Of a DNA stretch of 64,000 nucleotides, positions 1,092 through 61,397 are shown in pieces. The number at the start of each line of letters is the position of its first letter. Position 1 is the first letter of the stretch. The stretch covers positions 124,001 through 188,000 of the forward strand of contig CAKKNE010000003.1 in the NCBI GenBank assembly GCA_918797485.1. The letters run 5' to 3'. A program made the translations under genes and the position numbers. The notes beneath the pieces were generated by a model, which searched no databases, was not told the origin of the DNA, and saw nothing but the letters and a program-made list of their open reading frames with translations. The DNA is from Pelagomonas calceolata. Taxonomy: Eukaryota.

Positions 1092-1114
1092 CTAGCGTCC
1101 TGTAAGACACTAGC
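1092..1114. promoter_or_regulatory. CTAG-N14-CTAG upstream motif, in the divergent region between the SNARE and ATG12
   Basis: ctagcgtcctgtaagacactagc; near-identical copies recur upstream of many genes in the window. Confidence 0.6.
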
Positions 1115-1247
1115 CTGGCTCCTTGTCCGGGCGCTAGCGCGGCACGAAAGGCCTACCGCTGGACCGCACCGTTATTTTTGACGTGCCACGAGCTGCGACG
1201 AAACAAATCCGCATCGATTTCACTCACAGACAGTCAGAAAAATCAGC

Positions 1248-1571
1248 ATGGCAGCACAGCCATCCCCAGCACCCGGCGCAGAGGCAGCACCACAGCCACC
1301 ACCGGAACGCGTCAAGCTCCACTTCAAAGCCGTCGGCTCCGCCCCCTTATTACGAAAACCAAAACTCACGGTAAACGGAACAGAGCCGTTCCACGCGGTG
1401 CAGACGTTCCTCGCGAAGCAATTACAATTACCTCAAACGGAGCGCCTTTTCCTCTACTGCGACAGCGCCTTCTCGCCTGTCCCTACCGAGCCCGTCGGCC
1501 ACCTCTACGCCTGTTTTGGAAGAGGCGGCGAGCTCGTCGTCAACTACGCGACGACGGGCGCGTACGGGTGA
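1248..1571 (+). CDS. ATG12: Ubiquitin-like autophagy protein ATG12
   Basis: VKLHFKAVGSAPLLRK...LFLYCDSAFSP...ELVVNYATTGAYG, with the terminal Gly. Confidence 0.95.
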   Translation: MAAQPSPAPGAEAAPQPPPERVKLHFKAVGSAPLLRKPKLTVNGTEPFHAVQTFLAKQLQLPQTERLFLYCDSAFSPVPTEPVGHLYACFGRGGELVVNYATTGAYG

Positions 1572-4500
1572 AGCGACGCGGCGTTTGTAAGGTGGCGTTT
1601 ATTCATCCCCTCCTCCAAGGCAGCGGCCTCTTGCGCCGCCTGCCGTTCAAGCAACTTCCGCTTGGGCCGGAGCGCGTCCCGCTTGATGATGAGCTGCTTG
1701 ATCTCCTGGTCGCGCTGGTTGAGGATCGAGCCGAAGAAGGACTCCTCTCCCGCCTTCTCCTCGGCCTTGCGCTCTCCTGCCAAAACTTCTTGGTCGGCTT
1801 TGGTTTTTTCGGCCAACGAGACGCTCGCGCCGATGTTGAAATCCAACAACGTGCGGTCCGCCGCCACGGGCTTCACACCGGCCGTCGCGAGCTGGTGCTG
1901 CACATCACCCAAGCCTCGCCGTCGATAAAGCGCGCGTAGTGGCCCACCATCCTTAAAGTAGCTTTGTCGTCGGGCGGGCGTCACTATCACCGGGCGTCGC
2001 CGGACGCGAGCAAAGCGGCGTAGATCGGCGCGACCTTGCTCCGCAAATCATGCGTGGCGACGGCCTGCCGCAAAGCCCGCTCGGCGCGCGCGGCCTGCGG
2101 CGTCTGCAGCGCCGCCGGCCGAACGCTGCATGAACTTCATGGTCGTTTGAGCATCAGCGGGCGGCGCCTGTACCACTGTTAATTCTTCGTCGGAATCCGA
2201 GCTGTCTCCAGCGATCGTCGTAATAATCTTCTCCTCCTTTTGGGAAGGTTTTTTCTTCCTTAGAGGCTGCGCCGTGTCGCTCAAAACGCCCCGATCTCTA
2301 TCGCAGCCCAGCCGGATCTCCTCGTCCTCCCAGGCATGTGCTAACAATTGACACGTCGACCGCATGGTCTTGTCCGACCGCCAGCCCCGGATGTACGAGA
2401 TGAGCTTGGGGTTTCTCGCCAAATCAGCTAAAACACCACAAACCTGCAGCCGCATGAGCCTCGGTCCTACTTCTAATAAAGCTAGAAGCGCATCCAAACC
2501 ATCAACCGGCGGCAAGCGAGCTTCCGACCGCCTGTTGCCCACGACGCCGTGCCAGAGGCAGTCCAGGACACCGACAATCAATGGATCAACTTTTTCAGCG
2601 GAGGACGACGACGGCATGGCGTCGCGCGCCGCCTCGCTCAAATTCTTGTGGCGCGATCTAGTGACCGGCACGCGCCGTTTGACGTACGCGTCGATCTCCT
2701 GGATCAACAATGAAACGCCGTGCGCCCGCCGTAACCGAGCTTGGTTGTCCTCGTGGTTCTCGCAGAGCTTCGCCAGGATCATGACGGCGTCGTTCCGCAT
2801 GTTCGCGCCCGCCCTTGAATCGGCGAAGCGCTTGAGCATGATCTCGACCCCATCTAAGTTGCCGAGCTCGTTCTGGAGGCCCGGTAAGCCCACCACACTG
2901 ATCAGGAGCATCAACGCACCCCTCACCAACCCATCGGCACTTCTCGCCGACGGTCTTGTGGCATTGGTGTTCTGGGTGGCTTCGTCGTTACCTTCATCGC
3001 ACGCGTCCAGGAACCGTAGTGCCAAAATGTGGCCCTGGAGCTTCTGGAATGCCGCCGGCGCCGCGGCGCCAAATTCAACAACACGGCCATGGCCTGCTGC
3101 TGTAAGACATGCAGCTTCGTCAGCTCCAGGTTCTTCAGGATGCCCGGGATCCGCCGCCCGTTCACCGAGACCGTGTCGCGACACGGCCGTCTCGTCGTCG
3201 TCCCATTCCTCGGGCTCGTCGGCCGCATCTAAGGCTTCCACATCTAGATACATGAGCAAGGCGCCCATGAAGTCCGCTTCTACAACTAATTTGAGATTTT
3301 CCTCCTCGGCCCGGCCCAGATCACTCAACATGGACCACAAAATTCGCTTCGTCTCCAAGTCTTCATTCGACGACGTGGCGAAGGTGTGCCGATCCGCCAA
3401 CGGCGGCTCCGTGGACCGCGGGTCGCGGCTTTGTGTGGCCTGCGTCCGCACTTCGATCGCGTCCTCGGGCAATTCGGCCGCACAAGCATAATCGAGCAGC
3501 AAGTGGATCAACCGCTGCCGTCGGAAGGCGGCGTGCGATTTTCGATGCGACGCGATCAACGAGCAGACGATGAGGACCTCGTTCCTTAGTCTTTTGTCGT
3601 CGGCCTTGTGGCCCGTCAGGAACAGGTGCTGCAGGATCTGTCTCAGGACCGCGATGGTCGCATCATCCGACAGCTGGTACATAGCTGAGGTGAAGCGCCT
3701 CCTTGATAGGAGCTTGGTGCGAGAGGCCGCAGGCGGCCCGGCGACGTCGGTGACGTCGTGGCAGTGCTCGAGGACGTTCCAGAGAATTTCTACCGTCGCA
3801 TGGACGACATCCGACGCGGCAGGATCGTGGAGGTAGCACCGCAGTAGTTTCACACACGCTCGAGCACCGCCACATTCCACCAGGTCGAACGAAGACTGCG
3901 CATCTGTAGATAGTTCCCTCAGCAAATGTACCAAGCTTCTAAGGACTTGCGACTGCGCATACTCGAGCGTGCGCTTGTGCGTCGAGTAGGACAAAACGTC
4001 GCTGAATAAGGCGTCGGTCTTGGCGGACCGCGGCTTCCTTCTTCGACCACCTCTGGAGGAGGACCGCGACATGGTGACATCTTCATCATCCGACGTGTCC
4101 GCATCAATAAAGTCGACGGTCGCACGCGCGTCGAAGACCTTCCGCTCCGTGCCGTCGTCGTCAATAGCTAGGATAATGTTCGCATTCTCCTCTACTTTCG
4201 CGCACGTCGCCTGGACGGCGTTGGCTTCGAGCAGGAGCTTTCTGTTTAGTTTTTTCTGGGCCTTGCCCGCGGCAGAGGTATCTTCGGGGGTCGCGATGGC
4301 GGTCAATGCTCTTGTAGCTTCGACGGCCACCCTTACCGATGTCGATGATTGTAGGCGGAGTAACTGCTCCAAGATCTGGGCCGCGGCCTTGAGACCCGGT
4401 GCTAATAATTCCTCGTTGGCCTTTTGCCTTAGGTTCGGTCTCGCGGTGATCCTTATAATGTTGCAGAGCGTCCTCTCGAGTTCTTCGCTTTCTTCCGCGT

Positions 4501-4720: not shown

Positions 4721-5049
4721 CGGTCCGTCAATGGGGCTGCCCCTGTGCTTTGCCCGCGGTGGCGTGCCGACGCGCTTCGACTGCGGCGCGTGCCGGTCGT
4801 GGCTGCTCCTCGGAGCACGCGGATGCGACAGCTGGCCTTCTCCGGCCTCGTGGCAGCGTCTACGAGCGGCGCTTTAATGTGAGCGCTGTCCATTGCCTGT
4901 AGGCTAGAGGGTTTCTCTCCTACTAGCTTGCTCGTCCTGCCCGGCGACGATATCACTGCCGTAACAAAGCCCCCGGAGCGGCGGGCGGTCTCGTCGCTCA
5001 AGTCTCGGAGACCACCCCTACGCCGTCGACGCGAGGTCGCGCGCCGCGG

Positions 5050-7234: not shown

Positions 7235-7717
7235 TAAGTAGCGTTGTTTCTCTTTTGGCGTTGTTCTTTCGCTCCGTAGATCGATGGGCATTTTACCGCC
7301 CCGCGTCCCGAGCGCGCTGATGCGTTTGAACAAACAAGCCGGGTTTTGGCTACCTTCCTTATGTGTAGTGTTGTTATGGTGCTAGGTAGAGGTGCTTGTC
7401 CTTATGCTTAGGCTAATTACGTCGCGAGTATGAAGCTAGTGTAGCGACACACTAGCCTGTCCCAGTCTTTGGCCGTCCGCGGTCTCCCCTAAACACTGCA
7501 CATCTGTGCTCTCTGCAGCTCCAGCGACTCATCGTTGCCCACGAGATTGCGGCGCTGTTAATTCTCGACGCGCCACGCTCTCAGCCGGCCCAGCAGACTC
7601 GCCGCCGGTTCATACCGCCGCGGTAGACCTCGCGCCCCGCGCACGCCAGCCGCCGCGGCGCGCCTCTCCCAGCAGACTCGCCCGCGCACGCCAGCCGCCG
7701 CGTGCACCTAAGCGGCC

Positions 7718-12529: not shown

Positions 12530-13246
12530 GGCGCCGGGCGACGACTCCTTTCCTCCGCGATTCAACGAACCTGAATCATCCACACCACCTGCGTAAGTAT
12601 CGCAAACGGTGCTCTCTTAAATACAAAGTAGAACCGCCGACGCCCATCTGTCCGACGAGCGAGCTCACTTCCACAGTGGGATCAGCCGGGGCTAGCTTGT
12701 CGGCGTTGGTACCCATATGGCGTCGCTGTTCCCTGAAGGCACCCGAGGGCGGTTGGAGGCGTCCGTGGAGGCTACAGTAGATGTGCGGCCGCGTGTGGAC
12801 ATGTTGGGCGACAAGGAAGCCTCCGGGTTTCGAGTCGAGCCGCAAGTACTTAAGTTTTTGTAGCCCACACGCCACATCCGTGCGACGTGCGCGCACGAGC
12901 ACCGTTCACACGTGGTCCTCACGTCCGCCGTACGCCGCCGCGTCCGTCTACCGCGCGCGCGTGCAAGAAACCGTCGCAAGCACTACGACAAAAATTTCCA
13001 GAGAAGCAGGAAGCAGACATGCGCGCGCGACGCACCGGAACCGAGTCAGAGGTTGGCTATAGACGCCGCCCGCGCGTCGCGGGCGCGCGTCGAAACCGTA
13101 CATCGCGCACGTCGACAAAAAGTGTACTGCCGTAAAATCTCGATCGCGGAGGTGGGGTTCGCGCGGATGGTGCGACCCCACCTGCCGCAGCCGGTCGTCG
13201 AGGACCTCTATCAGCGCTAGGCGCTCCGTTCCCTCTCCGTATAATA

Positions 13247-13555
13247 CTAGAAATGAGGCATGTAAAACTCCCCCTCCGCCATCAATCGAAGCGTCTCGTA
13301 CGCGTACAAACCGAAGAAAACGAGAGTCGAGCCGACCGCGACGTAGGCCACTATTTTATCGTCATTCGTCGCGGGGGCGGGGGGCGGCGCGTCGAAGAAC
13401 GGCTCCGCGTCGTCGTCGTCGGACGCGCGAAGAATCGTGACGTGTCGCGGCCGCACGACTGGCGCGCGACCGCATGCAGTCGTCCGCGTCGGCGGCGCGA
13501 AGGCTGCAGCGATCGCTGTCAGCGCCCAGAGGACGCATGCGACGTGTTTGACCAT
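13247..13555 (-). CDS. Small putative plastid-targeted membrane protein
   Basis: Signal peptide ending AAA-FAPP (ASAFAP-type), Arg/Thr-rich transit-like segment and one C-terminal TM helix. Confidence 0.7.
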   Translation of the reverse strand: MVKHVACVLWALTAIAAAFAPPTRTTACGRAPVVRPRHVTILRASDDDDAEPFFDAPPPAPATNDDKIVAYVAVGSTLVFFGLYAYETLRLMAEGEFYMPHF

Positions 13556-13739
13556 TTGTACGAGTTGTGCAGGCTGTTGTCTAATCCTTGGCTCTCTGCC
13601 TTACGAGCTTGTATGCGTTGCTTCGGCAGCACAGATGGAAAACAGATGCGGCACGGTACAACAGGCCACTCGGACCAAGATACTGCTCTACCGCGCTTGT
13701 ATAGCACGCTTGGCCGCTTTTGTCTCCGTTTTGGCTATA

Positions 13740-13839
13740 GCTAGCGGCCTGTAAGATACTAGAAATCCACAAAAATCATAAGGCGCGGCTTCCAGGCTAC
13801 GCGCGCTTAGGTGGGCTAGCGGCCTGTAAGCACACTAGC
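13740..13839. promoter_or_regulatory. Two copies of the CTAG-N14/15-CTAG motif (13740-13762, 13815-13839)
   Basis: gctagcggcctgtaagatactag and gctagcggcctgtaagcacactagc, upstream of the 13247-13555 gene. Confidence 0.6.
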
Positions 13840-16524
13840 AAACAAACAGGTGTGCGCGCGGCGCATGAAACGGCCGCAACACCAGCGCCGGCGCGGTCGC
13901 GTCGACGGTCTGCGCCGGCACGTACGCTTTCGTCGCCGCGTCCAACCGGACGACGGCCGCGCGCTGCGACGACTCCAAGTACCCGAGGAACTTCTCGAGC
14001 TCCGCGACGCCTTCCGGCGCGACGCCGAAGATGACGGCGTCGCACAGTTCTACCCGAGTCGCATCCTTCGCAGGCGCGGACGACGAGCTCGGGCCAGCAC
14101 GGCCGATCCGGCGATAAGGAAGCGATGGGCGTGCGCTTGTTCGGATCCCTCGACGACGGCACCGACAGAACGGTCGGCGCGAACTGCTGTTGCTGAAGTA
14201 CGCCCGCCGCCATGAGGACCGAGAACGCTTCGTCCATCGCGGGGCCGATGCCGTCCACGAGCAGCGACTCGACGTAGGGCGGGTTGTAGGCGTCCATGAT
14301 CATACCCGTGATTTTCGCCGAGAGGGCCTCGTCGAGCGGCCGCCCCCAGGGGTCGTTTTCCAGCGCCACGGCCGCGTACACTCGATCGGGGAGCGTCGCG
14401 TAGGAGGCTCCCGGCGCGAGCGCGGGCGCCGTCGTCGGGATCGGCGCGGCCTCGGCCTCGCGCTCGTCGGACCGGCGCCGCGCAGTGCCGTCAGCGCGGC
14501 CTTGGCGTCCGGCGGCGGCGCCGCCGCGGGCGCGGCCGCCGCGAAGGACGGCGCCTCACGGGGCGGGGCGTCCGCACCGTCGGCCGCTTGTACGTCCGCG
14601 GCGGCGCCGGCGCCGCGGGCTCTTCCTCGGGCGCCACGGGCGCCGCCGCCGCTACAAGCAGCCCGCGAACAGCGTGTCGACGTTGAGGATGCCGAACGTC
14701 TCACAAGCTAAACGGGCAGCCTCGGCCGACGCCGTCCGCGTCTCCTGATCCAATCGCGCCTCGAGCGGCGGCGGCGCCCAGTCGTCGCCGCGCGGCGCGC
14801 CGTCGTGCTGGGCCGCCCAACCCTCCAGCTTCGCGAGGAGGCCCGGGAGGTCCGCGGCCTCGCGCGCCGCCGCGTCGACGGCGCAGCGCGCGCCTCGAGC
14901 CAGGCCGCCGCGTCGAAGGCCTCGACGGCGCGCTCGGCCGCGGCCATGGCCTCGGCCCTGCGTCTCGCTCCAGCTAAAGCGAGGTCTTCGCGCCGCCGCT
15001 TCTCGCGTCGTTGGCCGCGCCGCCGCGCTCCGCGTCCTGGATGGACAGCCGCGGGTCGCGCCGCCTGGCAAACTTATCGATGGGAGCCTTGAGCGCCTTC
15101 TTGCGCTTCTTCGGGCCGGACCCGTTTGATGAAGCCGGCCGCTTCTCCCGCGGGCCCTTGTTGACCCCATATCTAGCTTTGAGTTCCGCGATGCCCAGAC
15201 CCGTCGTGTCGTCCTCGTCGCTCGCGTCGGAGTCGTCCGAGTCGTACAAGGTCTTCGGCTTTGGCGCGCCCCAGTCGCGGTCGTTCTTATCATCATTGTC
15301 GTCCTTGGGCGGCGCCCGGAGCAGCGCCTTCGCGCGCACAGTAACCGCGCTCTCCAAAAACTCCGCGCGCTCCGCGGCCGTCACTTGCAACCCCCGGGCC
15401 ACGTACGCGTCGAGCGTGTCCTCTGTACGTTTAGGTGCCTCGCCAACCACGTCGCTCTCCAAAGCCGCAAAGTCCACGGCGACGCGCGCCAGCGCCGCCT
15501 CGAGGCGCCGCCGCTCGGACGCCGTCAGCGACCCCCCGCCGCTCGACCACGATTTGAGCGTTTCTGATAATAACCGCCGCGCGCCGGCGTCGTTGGCGGA
15601 CACGGCCGGGTGCCGCGCGTCGGCCGCGGCGCCGTAGGCCACCGTCTCGACCCAGTGCGGGAAGCGGCACTCGGCGTCGACGCGGCACCGTTTTTCCAGC
15701 GAAAAGACGGCGAGCTGCGTCGCGAAGGCTCTCGAGTGGAGGTAGTTGCCCCCCAGCACGAGCGAGTCCTCGGGCGTGTAGACCGCGTGGAGCCAGCCCG
15801 CCGGCAGCGAGAGCACGTAGCCGGGCTCGAGCGAGATGCGGGACACCTCGCTTTCCCCCAGCACGTCGCCGAACCACGTCTTGGATTGAGATGACGACGA
15901 GATCCACTTGGCATACGCGTCCAGATTCTTGGGAGAGGGCGGCGCGAACCAGAAGACCTTGGCGCCCTCCACCACGTGGTACCACACGCTCGAGCCGCCC
16001 ATGTCGACGTGCCAGTCCGTGAAGGCCCCCTTCGCGGACATGAGGCAGTACTTTCTGACTTTTGGCCGCTGGTCCTCGGGCGTCTTCGACACCCAGTCCA
16101 CGTCGCGCACGAACTGCGGCGCCCTGACCAAAGCGCCGAGCCTCGTGCCGCTCACCTCAAGCGACAGGATGTTCAAAACTTTGTGCGTTGTCGGCGTCTT
16201 CTCGCGCATGTAGGCGGCCCACTCCCGTAGCGTCCAGCGGCGCTGCTGCTCCTGCGTCGCCGCGTCGAGGACCGGCACCTCCGTGTCCGGGCCCGCGAGT
16301 ATGGCTACGTCGTCTATTGTGAGTTCTGGTCGTTTCAGGCCCGCCGATTCATGTCCGCGGATCAGGAACGGCGCGTCGACGGCCGCGTCGGTCGCGCGGC
16401 ACCACGCGCCGTCTATATCAGCTCCGTCCTCATGGATCGGCGGCGTGAAGGCCGAGCCGTGCGGCTTCGCCATCATCAATGCGGCAAAAGCCGCGGGGTC
16501 TTTTTCGATGAGGGAGAGGTCCAT
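13835..16524 (-). CDS. JmjC histone demethylase (KDM2/KDM7-like), probably continuing through frameshifts into MLLE/PABC-like and SPOC-like segments
   Basis: LNILSLEVSGT, KVRKYCLMSAKGAFTDWHVDMGGSSVWYHV, AGWLHAVYTPEDSLVLGGNYLH; downstream frames give SAKITGMIMD (MLLE-like) and LEKFLGYLESSQRAAVV (SPOC-like), stop at 13835-13837. Confidence 0.8.
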
Positions 16525-16748
16525 TGTGGCAGCACTGCTCTATCTCGTGCAACAGGGCTGTGGAAACTATGAATCTATATATCGTCCAGCCAGAATTAGC
16601 AGCCCTATATGCTCTAACAGACCCAAATTTAAGCCGGCGCGCCCGGCATAGCTAAGGCTAGAGACACACTAGGCTTGATTAGAAGATGCGTCATGCAGCC
16701 GTTCGAGTATCGTTCGGTTCGATACTGGTCCAAAGAGATCAATGGGAC

Positions 16749-18649
16749 ACGTACTGGGGGCCGAAAAACTAAATTTTTTAATTCGCGGCCGGCGACGGCG
16801 CCACGGGCAATGGCGGCCGCGCCGGTTTAATCCTGTCAATCCCTGCCCAAGAGGTCTCCCTGTCGTCGCCTAGGGTCGGTACTATACACGTGCAAGCGCC
16901 TACGCCGCATGCGCCGCCGCTTCAAGCATTTTTGGCCGATTTCTCTCAGCATTGCAACCCATTTGAGCATGAATTACTTGGCAATGGCTTCCAGAGCTCT
17001 CCGAGTGCACTAGACGGCCGCATCGATGACGTACGCGACACAGGCGACTACCCACTACCAGACCTACCCCGAGAGACGTCCAGGGGCCGACCTGCATCCG
17101 AAAAAAGTGTGCAATTTGGACCCGATGGCGCCCCGTTCCCGTCAAAAACGTCAATTACCCGAGGGCCCCCAGTAGTCGCCGTAGCGGTCTCGTTGGACCC
17201 CATACTACCCCACCGATAGTCAATTACAAGTATATGACATCTACACCGCGAGAAGGGTACTTTGGGCCGACCACGCTCGGGACGTGAACATCTGCATCTG
17301 GAGCTCGCGTAAGTCAGTCGGTCATGAAACAAATGATCGCGTCTTGGTCCATGGTGATGGTACACGGGCTGATGGTCGCAGGTCCAAGTAACTAGCCCAA
17401 ATTATCGAGATCAGTGGGTGGCAGGGTGGCCGAGCCGCCGTGGAGATTACTGTTCAAAAATCCTATGTAGTACACGCTCAGGCCGGTTATCTGGCCCGTC
17501 CCACAACCAAAGCGCCTGAAAAGCAAATTTATTTCACAACTCACCGGTCTGGGGCCTTTCCGGTGCTCCGTCTCCGCACCGTCGTCCGCGGAGAACGGGC
17601 AAGTCGGTCGATTGTGAATAGAACAACGGCGTTATGGTCCATCTGGATGGTGTCGTCGCTGATACTCGCAGGTCTGGGTTCTGTGCCCTTTACGCCATCG
17701 AAGCGTGGCCGCGAAGTCTCCGTTTTGGGCAGCTCTAACGGAGCATCTCATTCTGCTCAGTGAGTGTTCAATCGGGCTAGATGGACTCTACCACTAACAA
17801 ACGGAAGGAAACGAACATAAACTCGGGAGTTGTCCAGTAGAATTCTTCTCCCGCCCTCCGAGCGCGGGCCGTCGGCTCCGGTTCCGTCGAACTTATATGA
17901 AAACTGGGCTGGAGTTGATATAATGTCTTAATTGGATAGTAGAAGGCGCCACCAAACGCTGGTGTATTTTGGCGACCCGTAAGTCTCATCCGTGAATGTC
18001 GCGGGCGGTGCCTTCCGGGAGGCGCGAGAGTATGTTCTCGGGCCTCTACTCTAAAATATTTGGTCTCGGCGAACGACTAGGATGTATTCTGAATTTGGGT
18101 CATTCTTTTGACGCTATCGAGGCGTTTCTCTGAATTTCCTAGTGTGTCGATATACGCTAGCTCGGTTGGCTCTTCTGTCAACGTGCTTGTGATCTTCACG
18201 AGGTCCCGGAGAACGCATTGCGTCCGGGTCCATTGCACCTCGCCGCCGCGGGTTGTATTCCTCTACACGCTCCCGCCGGCCGTTCAGCTCCACCTGCTCT
18301 TGCCTTCGATCATTGAGAGATTTCACACAACGTGCGGGTTCTATAGCGCCGTTCCAGCTCGAGGTGCTCTGCTGCTGCTCCACACACACACACGCGCGCG
18401 CCGACGTCCGCTGCCCCGCTGCAGGTTTCTTCCCCCGCGTCCCAATCGTCACCTTTCGTGTGGAGCAGCAGTAACATCTCAACGCTAGCTAGCTCTGCTT
18501 CCGGAAGACACTTCCCTACCGTATCGCGCGCTCGCGCGGTCTGGTAGATTGAGGCTCGGACCCCCTAGGGTGAGTTCGGGTTCTCTACTATCAAGTCCTT
18601 AAAATTTCAACGTGCGGGCCCGGAGCAGAATAATCTCGCACCTTGGTAC
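16749..18649. mobile_element. Decayed lower-GC insert, possible transposon relic
   Basis: No coherent ORF, visibly lower GC/CpG than flanks, flanked by direct repeat atgggac (16742-16748 and 18650-18656), weak inverted gtac-containing ends. Confidence 0.35.
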
Positions 18650-18786
18650 ATGGGACTACTCCGGACGCTCGCGCAGCCATCGACGCGATCGACGCGATAT
18701 ATATATATACCCCATATACTTACCTGGGAACGCACGAGACGTCGCACGAGAGGGATTTTTATAAACGAATACGAGTTATTACGCGA

Positions 18787-19443
18787 CTAGTCGCTCTTGA
18801 TGCCCCCGTCGTCGGCGTACTTGATCAGGTCCGCGTGCGAGTTGATTTTGAGAATAGTGGTGCCCTTGCCGTGGTATAGCTCCTCCGCCAAATTGCCATG
18901 TAAAAGTACTGCGGACCGGTCGTTGATGCGCACGAGCCGCGGGCCCGCTTCCGCAAAAGCAATACCCAAGACATCAAGCACGACGAAAGGCGCGTGCCAC
19001 AGCGTGGCCACCTTCAGACACCCGACGCCCGCCGCGCGGTCGACCAAGCATGCCGACGACGCGACCGCGTCGGGGTGGAACGACGAGCACACCGCCGTCA
19101 CCGTGGCCGCCACCAAGTTGAGAGCGGCGACCATCTTCTTCGTCCGCGGTAACGCGGCGGTCGCGAGGGTCATGCACGTCGCGCCCCAGACCGCGAGGTA
19201 AACCGCGGCCACCATCACCAGGTTCTTCGCCAGCACGTGCACGGCCTGCTGCTCCGGCGTCTTCTTCTTCGGTCCGTCGAGCGACACGCCCCAGGCGTCC
19301 GCGATCAATGCCAAGCTCTCGGACGGCTGGGCCACATAGTACGCGCCGACCCCAAACAACCCGACGCCGTGGAAGAAGATGCACGCCGAACTAAAAGCTC
19401 TTCGCTTCTTGCCGACGTTGCCCGTGGGCAGGATGTTGTCGAC
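18787..19443 (-). CDS. Multi-pass membrane protein of unknown function, paralog A (main exon; a 5' exon may start at ATG 19598)
   Basis: GKKRRAFSSACIFFHGVGL...PSESLALIADAW...PRTKK...AGPRLVR...NSHADL aligns with paralog B; acceptor cacacag at 19450-19444. Confidence 0.75.
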   Translation of the reverse strand, partial: VDNILPTGNVGKKRRAFSSACIFFHGVGLFGVGAYYVAQPSESLALIADAWGVSLDGPKKKTPEQQAVHVLAKNLVMVAAVYLAVWGATCMTLATAALPRTKKMVAALNLVAATVTAVCSSFHPDAVASSACLVDRAAGVGCLKVATLWHAPFVVLDVLGIAFAEAGPRLVRINDRSAVLLHGNLAEELYHGKGTTILKINSHADLIKYADDGGIKSD

Positions 19444-19999
19444 CTGTGTGCGTGACGGGTGTGCGTGTGCGCGTTGCGGCGATGGCGTATAGCGTTCCGA
19501 TACGTCTCAGCGCAGCGATGCAGCGCAGCGCTATTTGACGAGGCGTTCGCGCGACGGCAACGACGCATCCTGAGCGCACTGCCAAGGCTCTGACCCATGG
19601 ATCTTGGTTGCACGGCAGCAGCGATGCCGGGGCTTGCGGCCATGCAAACCAGTACTTCGAACTGTCTCTGGACACCGCTTCCGTACGCTCTCGTTCATGG
19701 TGCGTCTCGTTCACGGCGTTCTTGTGCGCACCTGATGGCAAATGGCAGTGCTCAAGGATCCGTGACTCAGCGACCGAGAGCCGTCGCACCGTTATAAGAG
19801 TGCCTCTGCCCGCGGAAGAGAAAAGCGAAATCCGCGGGAACAAAACGGGTTTCGAGTGCCATGTGTTGCTTTTTGGGGCGCTAAAAGCTGTGCAACAATC
19901 ACAAAATATCCGCACGAAGCAGCATTTATTCCACACGATACGTGCGCGACGCGTGCGCTGATCTGAACGCGTTCCGCCGGAGCACAGCACCGCAGCAGA

Positions 20000-21188: not shown

Positions 21189-21315
21189 CGCGTCGATGGC
21201 GTGCAGCGCCGGCAGGCGCCGCAGGTTCCGCCGGTCCTCGCGGGTCCGAGTTTGGGGCCAAGAGGAGCGCGCTAGGTGTATGTAATTTGTTTGTTTATAA
21301 GAACCGAGCCTGCTA

Positions 21316-22282: not shown

Positions 22283-22307
22283 GCTAGTGTGTCTTTACAC
22301 CGCTAGC
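22283..22307. promoter_or_regulatory. CTAG-N15-CTAG motif in a divergent promoter
   Basis: gctagtgtgtctttacaccgctagc (reverse orientation), about 180-190 bp from both ATGs. Confidence 0.55.
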
Positions 22308-25988: not shown

Positions 25989-26011
25989 GCTAGTGCCTTA
26001 CATCACGCTAG
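25989..26011. promoter_or_regulatory. CTAG-N14-CTAG motif in a divergent promoter
   Basis: gctagtgccttacatcacgctag between the GTPase and NECAP. Confidence 0.55.
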
Positions 26012-28658: not shown

Positions 28659-28681
28659 GCTAGCGCCTGTGAGACACTAGC
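28659..28681. promoter_or_regulatory. CTAG-N13-CTAG motif in a divergent promoter
   Basis: gctagcgcctgtgagacactagc. Confidence 0.55.
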
Positions 28682-33257: not shown

Positions 33258-33713
33258 GGTTGTTCCTCTGCTGATCTATGCCGGTGCGTTTCGCCGCCCA
33301 GAGATATATAGCCCCCGCGCTGCGGGCGTCTTGTTGTTGGCTGTTGCCCCAACACAAAAGGCTGCCCGCCGAGTCACGGAGCCGCGAGGCGTTGTCGAGG
33401 GCTTGTTGTGCTTCACGTGTGTACGCTCTATCGTGCGTTTACCATCGTGTGTGCAGCCCTATTGATCTGATTCCAAACAACCAAAAGCTAGTACTCTTGT
33501 ACGCTAGCCAGTAGCCCTGGCTGGGCGTGGGGCGGTACAGCACAGCTTGTGATAGCTCTTAACTTGCGTAGCACATCGCCGCGAGGTGACCGATAAAGGC
33601 CTGAAGCGAAACAGCACGCCGGGCACGCGTGCGGTGAGTGGTGAGCAGCCACACGAGACAGCTCCATATTAGTGGTGCCAATAAAGCTACGCACAAATAC
33701 GCAGAGCGCAAGA

Positions 33714-34626: not shown

Positions 34627-34983
34627 CTTTGTTCTGTTGTGTTTTTCTCCAGTGTTTTTCCTGGGAGGCGGCCGCTCGCGGCGCGACGCCGGGCCGGCTC
34701 CTCGGCGTCTTAAGCTCCCGGATTGGTCCTGCGAGACGGACAGGAGATGGAACTGATGCGCAAACCCGTGCTATGCACGAGGGGACGCCGCATCGCGCAG
34801 CGCTAGTACATAAAGACACTAGGAGAGCAAGCACCCGAAACTGCTGCCGCCTGTCACGACCCACGCTGTTGGCCAGCGCTCCACGTTTGCACTGATTGAA
34901 GGCGCCAAACACTCATACTCTTCAGGAGGCAGCTGCACGGCACCTCAGCACGCCATCGCTGCGCACCAGCACCGCACACAAGC

Positions 34984-36102: not shown

Positions 36103-36299
36103 TCCTGGGTCGCCTCTCTTGTAGATACCTCCCCAAATCCAGCGATTCCGTTTCGCTAGTGTCTTTATGGCCGCTAGTTATCTCGCTCAGATTGGCAGAA
36201 CCAGAACCACGCGCTGTGCTCGCCCTCACGGGCATCGGAGACTGTGCACAAAGCGTGCAAAGCTGACAACATAGCCCTGCAGACCAGATCACCCTCACC

Positions 36300-39318: not shown

Positions 39319-39342
39319 GCTAGTGTCTTACAGGACGCTAGC
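39319..39342. promoter_or_regulatory. CTAG-N14-CTAG motif in a divergent promoter
   Basis: gctagtgtcttacaggacgctagc, the reverse complement of the 1092 copy. Confidence 0.6.
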
Positions 39343-40566: not shown

Positions 40567-40654
40567 AAGAGAGAGAGAGTCACTTATTGTGCCCACCCCC
40601 AGGTAGTACGGACCCCGGGCGCTCGGCAACGCCTAGCGCCCGTAAGACACTAGC
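40567..40654. repeat. Dispersed ~90-bp repeat, copy 1 (ends in the CTAG motif at 40633-40654)
   Basis: (ga)n-gtcacttattgtgcccacccccaggtagtacggaccccgggcgct..., colinear with 56629-56717. Confidence 0.8.
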
Positions 40655-42585: not shown

Positions 42586-42626
42586 CAGCGACGGGCGTTA
42601 TACTACGGTGATAAGTGTGTGGACTA

Positions 42627-43342: not shown

Positions 43343-43521
43343 CTCTTGCACGGCAGTGAGCTCTATACAGAGAGCAAATTTGAGCCGGCAGCGATGCTCG
43401 AAACTTGCGTGAGCTCGCGTGGACAGTCGCAGCGATGCGTTAAACAGCCTGAGCACGTCTATGGCCCACAATTGCGTGAGCACGCGGCCCGAGCGCGGCA
43501 CGATTTCGCAAGCAATAGCTA

Positions 43522-43544
43522 GCTAGAGGCTGTAAGACACTAGC
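43522..43544. promoter_or_regulatory. CTAG-N13-CTAG motif in a divergent promoter
   Basis: gctagaggctgtaagacactagc. Confidence 0.55.
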
Positions 43545-43745
43545 AGCGTCAGGATGCGTCGCGCGAATACGCAAAAGCGCCCATCTTTCATGTAGGCCAC
43601 CTCGAGTTTTGAATCCGTGCACCCGTACGGGCTCTCCGCCAATGTGATGCTCTGTGGCAGCTCAGATTTCAAGGCTGCCCCCGCCCTCCCGCTGGACCAG
43701 GCTGCCAAAACCTCTGCTCCCGGCCAAACCCTTGCTGCCGAGGCG

Positions 43746-44213
43746 ATGAGCGACCTGCTCTGCCCCTTTTTCGACGCTTGCCAAAGCGAGGAGCAATCGG
43801 ACAGCGAGGAGGCGACGTCGCCGCGCGGCTCCGAGTACTCCTTTAGTCTCCTCTTCCGAGGCGAGAGCGCCGACGAGCCGGCGACGCCGGGCGCACGGTC
43901 GCCCGGCGCGCTCTCCGACTACGTCTTCGGCGGCGGCGGCACGCCGGCCGCGACGCCCCGCCGGAGCCTCTTCGCCAGCGACGCAGACGCCAAGGAGCCC
44001 GCGGCAAAGCCTTGGTTTGCGACGTCGACCGCACCACAGAACGTCCCGCCGCCCAAACAAAAATCGACAACGCAATGCGTTCTTGAAGCCGTGGGCCTGG
44101 CCGCGCCCGAGCCTGAGCCCGAGCCAAAGTCCCGGACACGAGCCGTGCTCGAAGCCACTGGCCTCGTTTCGCCGGCGCCGGAACCCAAGGAGGAGAGCGC
44201 GAGCTACTTCTGA
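43746..44213 (+). CDS. Hypothetical protein with a duplicated C-terminal ~22-aa unit
   Basis: KSTTQCVLEAVGLAAPEPEP / KSRTRAVLEATGLVSPAPEP. Confidence 0.6.
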   Translation: MSDLLCPFFDACQSEEQSDSEEATSPRGSEYSFSLLFRGESADEPATPGARSPGALSDYVFGGGGTPAATPRRSLFASDADAKEPAAKPWFATSTAPQNVPPPKQKSTTQCVLEAVGLAAPEPEPEPKSRTRAVLEATGLVSPAPEPKEESASYF

Positions 44214-44231
44214 CTAACACATTCCACTAAC

Positions 44232-45482
44232 TTAAATCATCACGAGAGACCCCGAGGCACGCCCGCGCCGCGACCTCGACGGTCGGCCCGTCGCCGCACG
44301 TCGGCCTGAGACACGCGCCCGGCGCCTCGCACGCGACGGCGCGCGCGCGCGCCTGCCCTCGCCCTTGACGCGCTCCAGCACGCGCCAGACGCGGTCGAAG
44401 AGCGCCGTGCGGTCGAGGCAGTTCGCCGCGAAGGCGTCGAAGACCGCCGGCGCCGCCGCCGTCGCGTTGAGCGCCCACGATTGAAAGGCGGCGATCAGGT
44501 TTCGGCGCGAATCCCGCCACGAGACCGCACCCACAAATGGCTGGCAAGCGACCGCTCCTGCCAGGTTCGCCTCGAGCGACGCGAAGACTGGCCGCCCCGC
44601 CCTCAAAGCTTCGGTGGGAACGCGCGGGTTCCGGTCGTGGAGCGGGAAGGCGACGGCGACGTCGGCCGCGCAGTAGGCCCCCTGGACGTCGTCGACGCGG
44701 CCGTGGAATGTAGATGAGAGGTTCATCGCGTCGAGCACGCCTCGGAGGCGCGCCGAGTAGTTGCCGCGGTCCGCGCCGTAGAAGTGCCACGAGAAGCGCC
44801 GCACAAAATCCAACCCCGCGGCCTTGTCGAACTTCTGGAAGAACGATAAAGGTACCTTCGTGGGCTGCACGGAGCCCACGAACGCCGCGCGGCACGCGGG
44901 CGCGCCCGCGTATTGGTATGGTGGCGCCGCCAGCGCCGCAGCGCATTTTGAGGAAGGCGGCCGCGCGCAGGGCTTCATTTTTAAAGGAGGCTTCACTGTT
45001 TTGAGGAAGGACATGACCACGTCCACGAGTGACCCCCACATCTCTTCGCGCTTCGTCGTATGACCCTCGCTGATGGGCACGTTGGTGACGAGGCTCGCGT
45101 TCGCCGTGAGACGGTAGAACTCGCGCAGGGCGTCGCTGTCCCTCCCGGAGCCGACGCCCAGCGCGTGGTCGAGGTTTAGTTGAGCGAGCGCATTCCTGGA
45201 CACGCATTCATCCACAGGGCACAGGCGGCACGCGCACATTTTATTTGAACGCAGGGCCTCGGGCGAGCACACAACAACTGAGGATCCGTAGGCATCCACC
45301 AGGCCCTCTCTCCAACTCTTGGGCGCGGCCCAGCACGCGCGCGGCGCGCTCGTCTCGTCTTTTGCTCCCGGGATCGCCATGTAGGCCAGCTTCGGCGGCG
45401 CGGCGGCTGCTGGTTTTTTGTGTTTGTGGCCGCGCTTGGTTGAGGCGACCGCGGCGGTGGCGAGGAGGAGGATGCGGAGCAT
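44232..45482 (-). CDS. Secretory-pathway GT-B (GT4-like) glycosyltransferase
   Basis: Signal peptide; FHGRVDDVQGAYCAADVAV...NPRVPTEALRAGRPV resembles the GT4 nucleotide-sugar-binding motif. Confidence 0.6.
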   Translation of the reverse strand: MLRILLLATAAVASTKRGHKHKKPAAAAPPKLAYMAIPGAKDETSAPRACWAAPKSWREGLVDAYGSSVVVCSPEALRSNKMCACRLCPVDECVSRNALAQLNLDHALGVGSGRDSDALREFYRLTANASLVTNVPISEGHTTKREEMWGSLVDVVMSFLKTVKPPLKMKPCARPPSSKCAAALAAPPYQYAGAPACRAAFVGSVQPTKVPLSFFQKFDKAAGLDFVRRFSWHFYGADRGNYSARLRGVLDAMNLSSTFHGRVDDVQGAYCAADVAVAFPLHDRNPRVPTEALRAGRPVFASLEANLAGAVACQPFVGAVSWRDSRRNLIAAFQSWALNATAAAPAVFDAFAANCLDRTALFDRVWRVLERVKGEGRRARAPSRARRRARVSGRRAATGRPSRSRRGRASGSLVMI

Positions 45483-45751
45483 TTGCTGCTATGGTCTAGT
45501 CATGCCGTGGGGCTGCTCTACCATCATGCCGTGGTACAGAATGTATCGTGCGCCATATATGCGGCAGCCCCTCGCACTTGTAAATTCTTTGACGTCGGGA
45601 ATAAGCTAGTATGTCTACACACGCTAATTCCGGCCTCAACTCGCGCGCGCAGCGATATAAGACGCTGCAGACGCCATCGATGCGACATTAAATCATTAGC
45701 ATTGGTCTGCGTCGTAGCTGCATCACTCACGCTTGCTCACACCTGCAACAA

Positions 45752-47089
45752 ATGTCCCTACTGCATAAGGCGATGATGCTCCTGACAATCGCGCGCGCGC
45801 GAGGCTTTGCTGCACGCGCCGCGGTGCGCGCGCCGACGACGCGCCTGATGAGCGCTGCGGCGTGGGAAGCCCTGGGCCTCAACAGCGATATGAGCGATCT
45901 CGTTTCAAAACAGTGGCCCGAGCCGAACGCCGTCCAGCGCGCGGCGCTGCCCGCTCTTTTAAAGCAGGAAGACGACGCCGTCGTGGGTGCCGAGACCGGG
46001 AGCGGCAAGACCCTGGCCTATCTATTACCGGCGGCGCAGCGCGCCGTCGCGAATCGACGGAAGCACACGCCCTACCCCGCGGCGCTGGTGCTCGTGCCGA
46101 ACCGCGAGCTCGGGACGCAGTTGCGGCGGGTGGCGGCGCGACTCGGCGCGGACACGCAGCCGCCGTTCACCGACGAAAGCAAGCTCTTCTCGCTCGAGGC
46201 GCGCCACGGCGGCGCGCTGGCGCGCTGGCCCTACGCGCCGGGCAAGGCGCCCGACGTTCTGGTCGCGACGCCGTCCTTCGCCGCGGCCTTTGATCGAGAT
46301 CTGGACCTGTGGGAGGGCCTGTCGACCTTGGTGCTGGACGAGGCGGACATGCTCTTGGACGGTGGCTTCAAGAAGCAGCTGGACCGGTGTTTAGTGGCAC
46401 TGAAACGCGTCGAGCGGAGGAGGGAAGGCAATGACGATCTCGTGGAGGACGTGCCGGAGCGGTGCCGCCGCGTCGTCGTCGCCGCGACGCTGCCCAACCA
46501 GGGGCTGCGAAGCGTCGACGGCCTGGTGACAAAGTACTTCGCGAACGCGACGCGATGCGCGGATTTGCCGATGCACGGCGTCGTCTCGACCCTAGAACAT
46601 GTGTTTGAAAGTGTACAAAGTGATGACGAGCGCGACGCGAAATTGAATGACTTGCTCGAGAGCACGGAACGGACGATGGTCTTCTGCAAGACGGCGAACC
46701 GCGCTTCTGCAGTTTCAGAGCGGCTCGCTTTGGGTGGTATTGCGGCGGCGCCCTACACGAAGGACGTCGACCCGGAGCGGCGCCTGGCCACTTTGGATTT
46801 GTTTGCCTCGGCCAAGATTAATGTCCTCGTATGCACGGACCTGGCCGCGCGCGGGCTGGACCTGCCGGAAGTCAAAAGGGTGGTGCAGTACGACTTCGCG
46901 ACGGACGCCGTCAGCCACCTGCACCGTGTTGGGAGGGCGGCGCGCGCCGGCGCCGCTGCTAGTGCCGTCTCGTTCGTCGATTCTTCCAATACGGACCTCG
47001 TGGCGGCGCTCGAGCGCGGCGACACGGTCGAGCACGCGTTTTCGCGGAGGCGGGGGCTGCGGAAGAAGCTGCGTAAGGAGCGGGTTTAG
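45752..47089 (+). CDS. DEAD-box RNA helicase, organellar RH22-like
   Basis: AETGSGKT, LVPNREL, DEAD, AAT, TDLAARGLD, HRVGRAAR; transit-like N-terminus. Confidence 0.92.
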   Translation: MSLLHKAMMLLTIARARGFAARAAVRAPTTRLMSAAAWEALGLNSDMSDLVSKQWPEPNAVQRAALPALLKQEDDAVVGAETGSGKTLAYLLPAAQRAVANRRKHTPYPAALVLVPNRELGTQLRRVAARLGADTQPPFTDESKLFSLEARHGGALARWPYAPGKAPDVLVATPSFAAAFDRDLDLWEGLSTLVLDEADMLLDGGFKKQLDRCLVALKRVERRREGNDDLVEDVPERCRRVVVAATLPNQGLRSVDGLVTKYFANATRCADLPMHGVVSTLEHVFESVQSDDERDAKLNDLLESTERTMVFCKTANRASAVSERLALGGIAAAPYTKDVDPERRLATLDLFASAKINVLVCTDLAARGLDLPEVKRVVQYDFATDAVSHLHRVGRAARAGAAASAVSFVDSSNTDLVAALERGDTVEHAFSRRRGLRKKLRKERV

Positions 47090-48768: not shown

Positions 48769-49140
48769 GCTCTTCTAGTGTGCATGTAAGTGATTTAAAC
48801 CAATCGAAAAGACAGACTAGCGTTAAGCATACTAGACGCCCTCCGAATCAAGATAGTCAAGCTTTGTTTGCCCCTTGTGGGCACGTACAGACCTCAAAAA
48901 CGTAAGCAAGGCGGCGTAGGGATCCTTAAACGACACGCCCTATACTTTTTTTTGCAAAAGCATCGCTATCAGCGAATTCTGATTTTGGTGCAGTGAAACT
49001 TTGCAGGCAAAGTGGCGCACGCGCGCGCGCCTCGCTTCGTTACCTTCGTCTTAGGCACTCCAGATAACGTTGACGCCACGCCATTGATGAGAGCGCGCGT
49101 AAATCGCCCCTTGCGAACCGACGCGACGCGACGCCGCGCC

Positions 49141-51171: not shown

Positions 51172-51194
51172 GCTAGTGTCTTACGGCCGCTAGC
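51172..51194. promoter_or_regulatory. CTAG-N13-CTAG motif upstream of ProDH
   Basis: gctagtgtcttacggccgctagc, 180 bp from ATG 50992. Confidence 0.55.
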
Positions 51195-55517: not shown

Positions 55518-56689
55518 GCGGCGACGCCGGACACGGGCGCGCGCGCGACGGCCGGCGGCGGCAGCCCCGCGGTCGTCCCGGCCGCTCGGACGACGACGAC
55601 GAGATCAGCGAGCCGGCGCCGGTCTCGGAGTCGCAGGCCGCGGCCGAGGACCTCACGGGCCTGCTGCCCGGCGCGCCCGTGCGCGGCAAGAACGCCAAGG
55701 GCTCGCGGAAGCGCCGGCGCTGGACGGCCGACGAGGAGACGGCCGTCAAGGACGGCTACCAGATGTACGGCGACAAGTGGGCCAAGATCCTGCGCGAGTT
55801 CTCCGTGCTCAGAAAGGGCGGCCGCACGAGCGCCGACGTCCGCGACAAGTTCCGCAACCTCGTGAAGAAGGACCCGGCGCTCGCCGGGCCGCCCAAGCGC
55901 GCGCCGGCCGACGGCCGCACCGACGACGAGGACGACGAGGACGAGGAGGAGGCGGCGGCGCCGGCGCCCGCGCCGAAGCGCCGCCGCTCGTCCGGCGGCG
56001 CCGCGCCGGCGCCGGCGCCGGCCGCCGCGCCGCCGCCGCCGGCCGCGGCGCCCGCGCCCGCCGCGCCGCCGGCGCCGCGCGTGCCGGCGGACGCGTGGGT
56101 CCCCGTCTGCGCCGAGTGGTGCCGCAAGCGCCTCGTGGCCGAGCCCGACGCCAAGGTGCACATCTCGACGGTCCGCGACGCGTTCGCGTCGTCGACGGCG
56201 CTGCCGGCGGCGCACGCGGGCGCGCTGCGCGAGGCGTTCAAGCGCCCCAAGTCCAGGGAGTCCAAGGCGTTCAAGAAGACGCTCGAGGCGATCGTCAAGG
56301 GCAACATCAAGAACCAGGTCGTGATCGACGGCAAGAACCAGGTGGGCATCCTCCACTTCCGCCTCAAGGGCGACCACGTCGTGGACGACGACGAGGAGGT
56401 CCTCTCCGACGCCGGCGCGGCCGAGCCGGCCGCGGAGGAGGAGGAGGAAGAGGAAGAGGCGAGTGCCCTTTCCCCCTTCATCCCTTGTAACTCCATGCCA
56501 CCTTCCTTTCGGTCCTGGACTCGTCCGTGCGTTTGCTCTGTGGTCGAGTCAGGGTTGCGCGGCGGCTGGTTGAGTGGACTACCTTCCTATAGAGCCAAGC
56601 CTCAGCCTTTCTTACCCAAAACGGGAAAAAGAGAGAGAGAGAGCCACTTATTGAACCCACCCCCAGGTAGTACGGACCCCGAGCGCTAG
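54627..56689 (+). CDS. Telobox/TRF-like single-Myb protein (frameshift in the Pro-rich linker; 3' end uncertain)
   Basis: RRRWTADEETAVKDGYQMYGDKWAKIL...RTSADVRDKFRNL; helical N-terminal domain in ORF 54627. Confidence 0.75.
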
Positions 56690-56717
56690 GGAAGTGCTAG
56701 TGTCTCGACATACTAGC
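56629..56717. repeat. Dispersed ~90-bp repeat, copy 2 (ends in the CTAG motif at 56696-56717)
   Basis: (ga)n-gccacttattgaacccacccccaggtagtacggaccccgagcgct..., colinear with 40567-40654. Confidence 0.8.
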
Positions 56718-59693: not shown

Positions 59694-61190
59694 CTAGGAA
59701 CCGGCGAGCGCGGCCAGCGCGCGGTCGGGGTACGTCTTGTTCCGCTCGTTCACGATGTCGCCGCGCGCGCCCTCGATCGCGGCCTCCGCGCCGGCTTCAC
59801 GGAGCGCTGCGGCGCCGCCGGCCACGGCGAGCGCCTCGATCGCGAGGCACCCCTGCTCCTGGAGCGTGGGCTCGCCCGACGCGACGTGTGCCTCCATGGC
59901 AGAAACGAGCCGCGCCGCGCCGTCGTTCGCGAGCAGCTTCGCCGCGTTCGCGCCGCTCTTCGCGAGCACGCGGCAGCACCCGAGGAGCACCTCGGCGAGC
60001 GAGGGCTCGTCGCCGCAGCACGGCAGCGCGAGGGCCGCGGCGACGCGCTCGCACGCGCCGGCCTCGCCGAGCGCCGCCGCGTGCGCACTGCCCAGTCGCA
60101 GCAGAGCGTCCGCGACGGCCTCGACCGCGGTCTCCGGCTCTTCCAGCGCGAGCGCGCTCCCGAGCAGGCGGACGACGGCCGCGCAGTCGCCCGAGCTCTC
60201 GGCCGCCTCGACTGCGTCGACGATCTCGTCCTCGTCCATGGCGGCGACTGCCGCGGCGTCCTGGCTGACCGGCGACGAGGCCGTGTTGACCGTGGGGCTG
60301 ACGGCCACAACCGGCGCGATGGCAGGCGCCTCGACAACGGGAGCGAGCAGCGCGAGGTAGTCGCGGTTGTAGTACGTGTTCGACGCGTCCGGCGCTGATA
60401 ACTCGCGGACGACGCGCAAGCCCGCGCGCGAGACCAAGCACCGCACGGTCTCGGGCGTGACGAAGTAAAACCCGCCGACCGAGTACTTCTCCTGGGCCTC
60501 GAAGCGCCGGAAGCCGTCCGGCGCCAGGAGATTCGACGTCGAAATGAACGCTTTCCCCTCATCCTTTAATAAAGCTCGGATCCGCTTCAGACACCGGAAC
60601 ATGGCGTGCGCGTCCATGTGCACCATGACGTCAAAACAGTACACGAAGTCGTACGCGTGTTTATGTTGCGGAGCGTAGTGCCGCGGCTTGTCGGAAAACC
60701 CGGCGTCGGCGCCGCTGGCGTCGCCGTGGATTTGCGCGAAGGTCACATTTTCCTGGGACGCGAGAGCCTGTTTCGCGGCCGCGAGCATCTTGGCACTCAC
60801 GTCGAAGCACTGGAGCTTCGATACGCGAGGCGCGACCATTCTACCGATGCGGCCGCCGCCGCTGCCGATCTCGCAGCAATGCGTCTTCAGTGAAACTTCG
60901 CTGAGGATCCACTCGTCGACGACGCGTTTTGTATGGGCCGCCGGGGCCCACTCGTCGCCGACGTTTTCCAATGTTTCTTTGGCTTCACGGTTCGAGGCCG
61001 CCATGCCGGCGACCCAGCCTGCCTCGGCGCCCCACTCGCTCGCGTAGACGTCCCAGAGCTTCTCGTTCGTCTGCACGTTGCCGGCGTCGGGGTAGATGAG
61101 CGCGCCGCTCAGCTTCTGGACCATTTGCTGCACCATCTCGTGGCCGCGGCCGGCGGCCTCGCGCAGGTATTCTTCCGTGTCGGCTTGCAT
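59694..61190 (-). CDS. Class I SAM-dependent methyltransferase fused to C-terminal ARM-like repeats
   Basis: EIGSGGGR, FDVS, YDFVYCFDVMVH, LLKDEG; C-terminal EAGACERVAAAL / LQEQGCLAIEALA. Confidence 0.85.
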   Translation of the reverse strand: MQADTEEYLREAAGRGHEMVQQMVQKLSGALIYPDAGNVQTNEKLWDVYASEWGAEAGWVAGMAASNREAKETLENVGDEWAPAAHTKRVVDEWILSEVSLKTHCCEIGSGGGRIGRMVAPRVSKLQCFDVSAKMLAAAKQALASQENVTFAQIHGDASGADAGFSDKPRHYAPQHKHAYDFVYCFDVMVHMDAHAMFRCLKRIRALLKDEGKAFISTSNLLAPDGFRRFEAQEKYSVGGFYFVTPETVRCLVSRAGLRVVRELSAPDASNTYYNRDYLALLAPVVEAPAIAPVVAVSPTVNTASSPVSQDAAAVAAMDEDEIVDAVEAAESSGDCAAVVRLLGSALALEEPETAVEAVADALLRLGSAHAAALGEAGACERVAAALALPCCGDEPSLAEVLLGCCRVLAKSGANAAKLLANDGAARLVSAMEAHVASGEPTLQEQGCLAIEALAVAGGAAALREAGAEAAIEGARGDIVNERNKTYPDRALAALAGS

Positions 61191-61373
61191 TGTTTCGCTG
61201 CGTAAGCTGTCGGCGACTCGGAGATGATTACCGCAAGGCTGCTGGTGCTTTTCCCAAAGGCGGAAGCTGCGAACGATGCTAGCGTTGTTGCAGCGAATCG
61301 ATGCGGCTTGCGAGCCTTATTTGCATCCACTAGTGCATTACAAGCGCCAAAATCGCGGCTGCGTGAAAGTCGA

Positions 61374-61397
61374 GCTAGCGGCCTGTAAGACACTAGC
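61374..61397. promoter_or_regulatory. Consensus copy of the CTAG-N14-CTAG motif in a divergent promoter
   Basis: gctagcggcctgtaagacactagc. Confidence 0.6.

Follow-up and report, generated by a model that had tools for sequence, protein, structure and literature searches.

Sites that occur once per promoter in front of unrelated genes are familiar from yeast (Reb1, Abf1, Rap1) and Drosophila (DRE, Motif 1), and the Abf1 site is also two-part; these sites are shorter than the element described here and have fixed spacing, and those of the yeast general regulatory factors lie further than 40 bp from the start. Almost nothing is known of promoter grammar in the pelagophytes, a group with some of the ocean's most numerous eukaryotes. 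In human, NRF1, ZNF143, ETS, NFY, SP and CREB are bidirectional promoter motifs that are placed just upstream of starts and act on both strands, with transcription outward, in TATA-less housekeeping-type promoters (10.1101/2023.06.27.546584; 10.64898/2026.05.04.722487). Here we analyzed a 64,000-nt stretch of Pelagomonas calceolata DNA (assembly GCA_918797485.1, contig CAKKNE010000003.1, positions 124,001 to 188,000 of the forward strand; hereafter the window), in which a CTAG-N-CTAG element with this same placement recurs in front of many genes. The element is real, and it is apparently an undescribed, lineage-specific promoter element. The explanation we favor, with a probability of about 0.74, is that a putative two-part factor binds it, keeping the promoter open and setting the start of transcription about 40 bp away on each side. 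A literature search found no description of the motif, although subscription journals could bear on its novelty; its two 11-base words turned up in 9 papers, all with titles on other subjects. In the P. calceolata genome paper (PMC9481584) the words promoter, motif and intergenic have no occurrence in the main text, and four of its supplements hold nothing relevant.

The pattern CTAG-N10-16-CTAG matched 20 times in the window (one match, at 51190, being an overlap by-product), compared with 1.80 ± 1.20 per shuffle in 100 shuffles, none of which reached 20. Inside 36 spacers, 19 pairs of CTAG were found at N11-15; when the same CTAGs were scattered at random 5000 times, the mean was 2.0 pairs and the maximum 10, and the same pairing test gave 0–4 pairs for each of 11 further palindromic tetramers. 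With a gapped matrix trained solely on 21 copies from outside the window, 15 sites in the window scored at least 15 bits, versus 0.3 in local shuffles. All 17 main and 4 weak copies of the first-pass annotation are present where it had located them, and the matrix recovered an extra strong copy at 18139-18160 that had been overlooked. Copy density was 22 per 64 kb in the window and lower, 26 unselected copies per 249 kb, in metagenome loci; extrapolation from both densities suggests that the genome has between a few thousand and about 11,000 of them.

In the metagenome scan the motif matched at least 122 stretches, and 121 loci were used for the flanking-gene analysis; locus counts exclude the near-duplicates L067 and L105, one member of each homologous pair (L058, L078, L084, L090) and L123. 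The window RPN7 is 99% identical to a cluster holding P. calceolata entries and 68% to an Aureococcus cluster, and the one locus checked in this way, L033, has an RPL4 whose identity to a 92-member cluster is 98%. The motif patterns had no match in viral contigs. The sole match in a prokaryote genome, L122, was discarded as evidence for bacterial occurrence, its bacterial-type frame running into Pelagomonas-like DNA as in a chimeric contig. Both L122 (G001 contig 13, 1-3100) and L124 join Pelagomonas-like DNA to bacterial-type coding sequence in a prokaryotic bin, likely by misassembly or contamination.

The consensus, (G)AGCTAGCGGCCTGTAAGACACTAGCAAG(C), covers about 28–30 bp. Its CTAG-N-CTAG core is the one first proposed, but the length of about 23 bp given with it was too short: around 126 near-exact metagenome copies the base bias extends 2–3 bp to the left and about 5 bp to the right and then disappears. 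The motif is an imperfect inverted repeat, in which two half-sites of 9–11 bp that read GCTAG-C/T-G-G/T-C on each strand flank an asymmetric middle of 6 bp. Hardly any variation is seen in the CTAG cores, and the half-site spacing flexes by 1–2 bp, as would suit a flexible link between two half-site contacts; among 42 copies unselected by the search pattern the core measured 22 bp in 21, 21 bp in 8, 23 bp in 7, 20 bp in 4, and 19 and 24 bp in one each.

Copies lie where genes begin. In the window they occupy 9 of 14 divergent and 10 of 15 tandem spacers (one small motif-less tandem spacer being left out), that is 19 of 29 gene-start regions, and none of 13 convergent ones. No copy falls within 48.7 kb of gene models, in line with their first description as essentially intergenic, and nine stand between divergent gene pairs, as had been reported, with the weak copy at 45606 counted. 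The reported lack of copies in convergent spacers was also found, but in the window it does not by itself reach significance once spacer length is corrected for (p = 0.12). Gene order alternates strongly here (14 divergent, 13 convergent, 15 tandem spacers), and the convergent spacers are very short, with a mean of about 107 bp. For the 68 of 146 examined metagenome copies with both sides called, 41 were divergent, 25 tandem and 2 convergent, the last within the error of the side classifier, which was wrong for one side at window copy 34803; control non-coding positions gave 104, 244 and 86, respectively. Called sides pointed away from the motif in 151 of 189 cases, and at tandem copies the motif faced either way without bias (14 versus 11).

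The relation to RNA 5′ ends was assessed with stranded polyadenylated (polyA) RNA-seq over 33000-46000 and 13000-30000 (four raw runs, one sample label), in which 40 listed ends formed 16 clusters. Fragment-end pileups of this kind likely lie a few bases downstream of the true starts. In 13 of the 16 listed clusters the motif centre was situated 20–60 bp upstream (26–57 bp), with the RNA pointing away from the copy, a placement whose chance is about 0.02–0.03 per cluster; the other three comprise two intragenic pileups and one strongly expressed motif-less gene (19714-19726). The region 13000-30000 was mapped after the distance had already been noted, and there 5 of 6 listed clusters fit. The distance from centre to 5′ end, 39.9 ± 7.3 bp, is far tighter than that from centre to ATG, 180 ± 38 bp (Levene p = 0.0004); the latter, about 130–240 bp in the 13 genes whose 5′ ends were mapped, agrees with the 120–300 bp first estimated. 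Both sides of the motif give a like distance (40.3 and 39.6 bp) whichever way it faces, and even the low-scoring copies 33488 and 45606 have 5′ ends about 40 bp away on both sides. In the four divergent pairs with both ends mapped (22258/22333, 33449/33540, 39293/39368 and 45571/45653) the ends are 75–91 bp apart. TATA occurred at 0–0.3 per 100 positions beside 261 motif flanks, with no peak and no enrichment.

Six pairs of loci have common flanking genes, two of these pairs being near-duplicates. In L079/L084 the motif is kept at 22 of 22 positions, with 100-bp flanks at 0.53 and 0.49 compared to 0.47 ± 0.03 for unrelated flanks and coding parts at 80–86%; in L014/L058 it is kept at 21 of 22, with flanks at 0.78 and 0.59. 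L008/L090 also has 22 of 22, with flanks at 0.89, hence uninformative. L027 and L078 share both divergent flanking genes, but their motifs face opposite ways and lie at positions that differ by about 35 bp in the alignment, an arrangement that would fit site turnover or inversion. The general or bidirectional promoter element put forward in the first-pass annotation is supported by the 5′-side enrichment in window spacers and metagenome flanking-gene directions, by the narrow range of distances at which RNA 5′ ends lie to either side of the motif (13 of 16 listed clusters, proxy ends) and by retention at homologous promoters whose flanks diverged (L079/L084, L014/L058).

We propose that a putative two-part DNA-binding factor would bind the two half-sites, keep the short promoter open and set where RNA polymerase II initiates, outward on either side and about 40 bp from the centre. 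At divergent genes one copy would serve both, the 5′ ends being 75–91 bp apart, and at tandem genes only the downstream gene yields stable polyadenylated RNA. Protein binding, chromatin opening and causality are inferred here by analogy with the human bidirectional motifs, and the dimeric factor and nucleosome-excluding site first suggested are inferences likewise. Candidate factors (six Pfam ids, Helitron, TBP) were not found among 14,639/16,667 annotated genes, and nothing follows from this, TBP also having been missed. A more far-reaching version, in which the motif would be the main core-promoter signal at the usual position of the TATA-binding machinery, serving two genes from starts about 80 bp apart through a lineage-specific reader domesticated from a mobile element, with a carrier repeat still seeding it into new promoters, seems to us rather unlikely.

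Several observations weigh against the favored explanation. The 5′ ends are fragment-end pileups in polyA RNA under one sample label, proxies rather than cap-mapped starts, with end positions taken from 34/47 and 46/100 begin/end rows, and the gene models are our own, built from open reading frames (ORFs), Pfam, a codon model and RNA strand. Antisense polyA RNA at three tandem promoters had a depth of 0–0.2, and unstable RNA would escape polyA data, so two-way firing is seen only where a gene lies on each side. The motif is not required for transcription, because a strongly expressed gene (5′ ends 19714-19726) has no copy and 10 of 29 promoter-containing spacers (5/14 divergent, 5/15 tandem) lack one. 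Because a near-exact motif pattern served to find the homologous pairs, the search itself favored identity in the motif; the pairs may also represent paralogues or divergent alleles, many relatives at 70–90% having been seen. Furthermore, 21 of 42 unselected copies deviate from the 22-bp core, which is unusual for a rigid dimer, and 9 of 154 copies have a repeat of 35–50 bp, element A, immediately on their 5′ side, always in the same orientation.

Element A, which in 2 of its 9 cases (window 13741/13816 and L053) is found between two full copies, raises the alternative that the motif is what is left of one end of a mobile element inserting into open promoter DNA, thus marking promoters and not driving them. 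On the consensus strand, 47 of 162 copies are also followed by a CAAG/CAAA run, which has two units in 10 of them, versus 3 of 162 on the other side; such runs resemble retroelement tails. Other repeats adjoin the copies at 40633, 56697 and 16652. These adjoining repeats may either insert beside the site or carry it. However, in most copies the flanks share nothing beyond about 5 bp, their profile being flat, and no offset pair around the copies was enriched for direct repeats of 3–8 bp, as a target-site duplication would be; a miniature inverted-repeat transposable element or retroelement fragment was rejected on these same two results. Moreover, a promoter region normally has a single copy, midway between divergent 5′ ends 75–91 bp apart, and the motif is retained while flanks decay to background.

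A Helitron 3′ end reads CTRR followed by the T of its AT target (PMC4778049), and Helitrons spreading the heat-shock element provide a precedent for transposons distributing promoter sites (PMC6927752). The motif resembles such an end in its CTAG terminus and, in the element-A copies, in a GC-rich stretch ending 10–15 bp before the first CTAG. In contrast, only 2 of 162 copies have a T after the last CTAG (5 of 162 on the other strand), on which ground the Helitron terminus was rejected, and the element-A flank is missing in 145 of 154 copies. A Helitron 3′ terminus would also have a separate hairpin about 11 nt upstream, a shared body and a 5′ TC end; here a GC-rich flank is common to 9 of 154 copies only, with its pairing judged by eye, and no 5′ end was found. 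We consider it decidedly unlikely that the motif is the remaining end of a mobile element that marks promoters and does not drive them. A mobile origin of the site, which would be compatible with its present function, is possible but doubtful: of the domesticated transposon remnant proposed at first, this much is kept in view of element A (9/154), whereas a plain neutral repeat is unlikely.

As regards the repeats themselves, element A was seen solely directly 5′ of the motif, with a variably truncated far end, and could be a carrier or a site-targeted insertion; its one pattern match in viral contigs, a phage coding frame (L123), was ascribed to chance. Element B in L017 (4168-4209) is seemingly bracketed by a 5-bp direct repeat, judged by eye, like a truncated retroelement end. 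A third repeat (L017 3870-3928; L046 1-72; the end of L124) contains a variant CTAG-N14-CTAG with perfect 6-bp arms beside a long near-perfect palindrome, and in L017 it is followed by TTAGGG-like runs. The low-GC, non-coding window stretch 16690-18100 attracts diverged RNA reads of other origin on both strands and is likely made up of nested repeat remnants; a flanking transposon at copies 16652 and 18139 was considered and dropped, as no long ORF was found.

A chromatin boundary, termination roadblock or replication-origin mark in promoter gaps, with starts following the nucleosome gap indirectly, would account for a motif that is orientation-independent, present once per spacer and, in tandem spacers, situated between the upstream 3′ end and the downstream start, as at 36156, preceded by a 3′-side pileup at 36073. 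A terminator or boundary would, however, be expected in convergent spacers too (0/13 in the window, 2/68 copies in loci), it would have no need to hold a standard deviation of 7 bp to the 5′ ends, and one site per 3 kb is dense for replication origins, which together make this explanation very unlikely. Least probable of all is a DNA hairpin or cruciform opening the promoter without a sequence-specific reader since, in spite of complementary arms, variable spacing and 3 of 8 folded strands with z below -2, folding of the consensus is no stronger than that of shuffles (z -0.28 and -0.86), arm-pair mismatches are the rule and are kept, not repaired (C/A in 140 and G/A in 105 of 144 22-mers; 17 and 8 of the 21 unselected 22-mers), the loop bases are conserved and a search for structured RNA gave no Rfam match at gathering score. 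An RNA hairpin is also unlikely, given the position of the motif upstream of the mapped RNA 5′ ends. By geometry only, with 9–11 bp arms around 6 bp, the motif is like a tyrosine-recombinase site; dif/lox-like sites have inverted arms of about 11 bp around an asymmetric spacer of 6–8 bp and of strictly fixed length, unlike the core described here, which is 22 bp in 21 of 42 unselected copies and 19–24 bp otherwise.

The copies of the window and the repeats adjoining them are listed in Table 1. The autophagy label initially attached to one of the neighbouring genes was not supported, the only basis being a sub-threshold ATG16 coiled-coil match, with nothing for the frames at 12.6-13.4 kb.

Table 1. 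Copies of the element and adjoining repeats in the window. Copy coordinates give the core, from first to last CTAG; strand is consensus orientation; bits are gapped-matrix scores.
Feature	Position	Strand	Setting	RNA 5′ ends and remarks	Bits
Copy	1092..1113	+	divergent spacer 849-1247	outside RNA-mapped regions	32.1
Weak copy	4904..4926	-	tandem spacer, upstream of CFAP69-like gene (start 4720, minus)		13.6
Copy	7436..7455	+	tandem spacer, upstream of RPN7 (start 7718, plus)		21.1
Copy	13741..13762	+		minus-strand gene 5′ ends at 13722, 29.5 bp from centre; ATG 13555	
Element A piece	13782..13815	+	between two copies	relatives adjoin motif in L005, L010, L017, L021, L033, L053, L106, L111	
Second copy of double site	13816..13838	+			29.3
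Weak copy	16652..16672	+	upstream of JmjC gene (start 16524, minus)	followed by repeat common to L004	13.5
Strong copy	18139..18160	-	right edge of repeat-rich non-coding stretch	only low-level plus-strand RNA follows	31.1
Copy	22284..22306	-	divergent spacer	22238/22258/22259 (minus), 22327/22332/22333 (plus)	
Copy	25990..26011	-	divergent spacer	26043 (plus)	
Copy	28660..28680	+	divergent spacer	28696-28707 (plus)	
Short low-scoring copy	33488..33507	-	divergent spacer	33449 (minus), 33540 (plus)	9.9
Copy	34803..34822	+	tandem spacer upstream of 34984 (plus)	RNA contig piece begins 34864	14.5
Copy	36156..36177	-	tandem spacer	36196/36200/36206 (plus)	
Copy	39320..39341	-	divergent spacer	39293 (minus), 39368 (plus), both 37.5 bp from centre	
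Element B (GA-run at one end)	40568..40629	+	adjoins copy	90% like 56632-56693; also in L017	
Copy	40633..40653	+	tandem spacer, upstream of ABC transporter gene (plus)		27.5
Copy	43523..43543	+	divergent spacer	43476/43492 (minus)	
Weak copy (one CTAG altered)	45606..45627	-	divergent spacer	45571/45572 (minus), 45653 (plus)	13.3
Shortest copy (19 bp)	48817..48835	+	upstream of small predicted plus-strand gene near 49000		under matrix threshold
Copy	51173..51193	-	tandem spacer, upstream of proline dehydrogenase gene (minus)		31.5
Element B, second window copy	56632..56693	+			
Copy	56697..56716	-	tandem spacer, upstream of 56850 (plus)		16.0
Consensus copy	61375..61396	+	divergent spacer 61191-61657		40.0
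Weak copy	63969..63987	.	window end		12.9

Three further features of the window were recorded. The strongly and variably expressed minus-strand gene with the motif-less promoter (19441-19726) has a 243-nt intron upstream of its long ORF. At 39709-39816, a 108-nt GT..AG intron is spliced in RNA and attracts thousands of reads from other copies; relatives are found at 20780-20848 and 63501-63569 and in loci L022, L023 and L054, and we label it an Introner-like repeat, with 10.1101/2022.06.06.494994 for context. Indels relative to the RNA reads break frames in many window genes (e.g., 40955, 41824, 42110, 42669, 43021, 14067-14078, 23254), and since the reads differ from the window mainly by such small indels in genes, the window carries assembly frameshifts and not pseudogenes.

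One long motif at a fixed distance from most starts offers a handle for factor pull-down, for gene-start annotation and for making very short two-way promoters for this alga, and the compact genome makes it testable whether one factor sets the starts of most genes and whether such a site has a mobile-element origin. Compared with the human bidirectional motifs, the Pelagomonas motif is unrelated in sequence, and it is one long, two-part, flexible motif present in about two thirds of promoter regions, usually once. The CGCG element TCTCGCGAGA is likewise palindromic, and it drives divergent starts in TATA-less GC-rich promoters, but it is a 10-bp perfect palindrome whose activity is abolished by a 1-bp insertion (PMC6192621), whereas the Pelagomonas motif is about 28 bp long and imperfect, with 21 of 42 unselected copies deviating in length. 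The oomycete core promoter elements INR, FPR and DPEP are, like it, stramenopile, TATA-less and lineage-specific; they are located at or downstream of the start, with INR+FPR in about 13% of genes, whereas the Pelagomonas motif is upstream, in either orientation and of different sequence (PMC3599244). Identity with a TATA box or with INR-FPR was rejected by this difference in sequence, by the occurrence in either orientation and by the lack of a TATA peak in the 261 flanks. The element works like known bidirectional start-positioning motifs, and it differs from them in its length, its two-part flexible build and its share of promoters.

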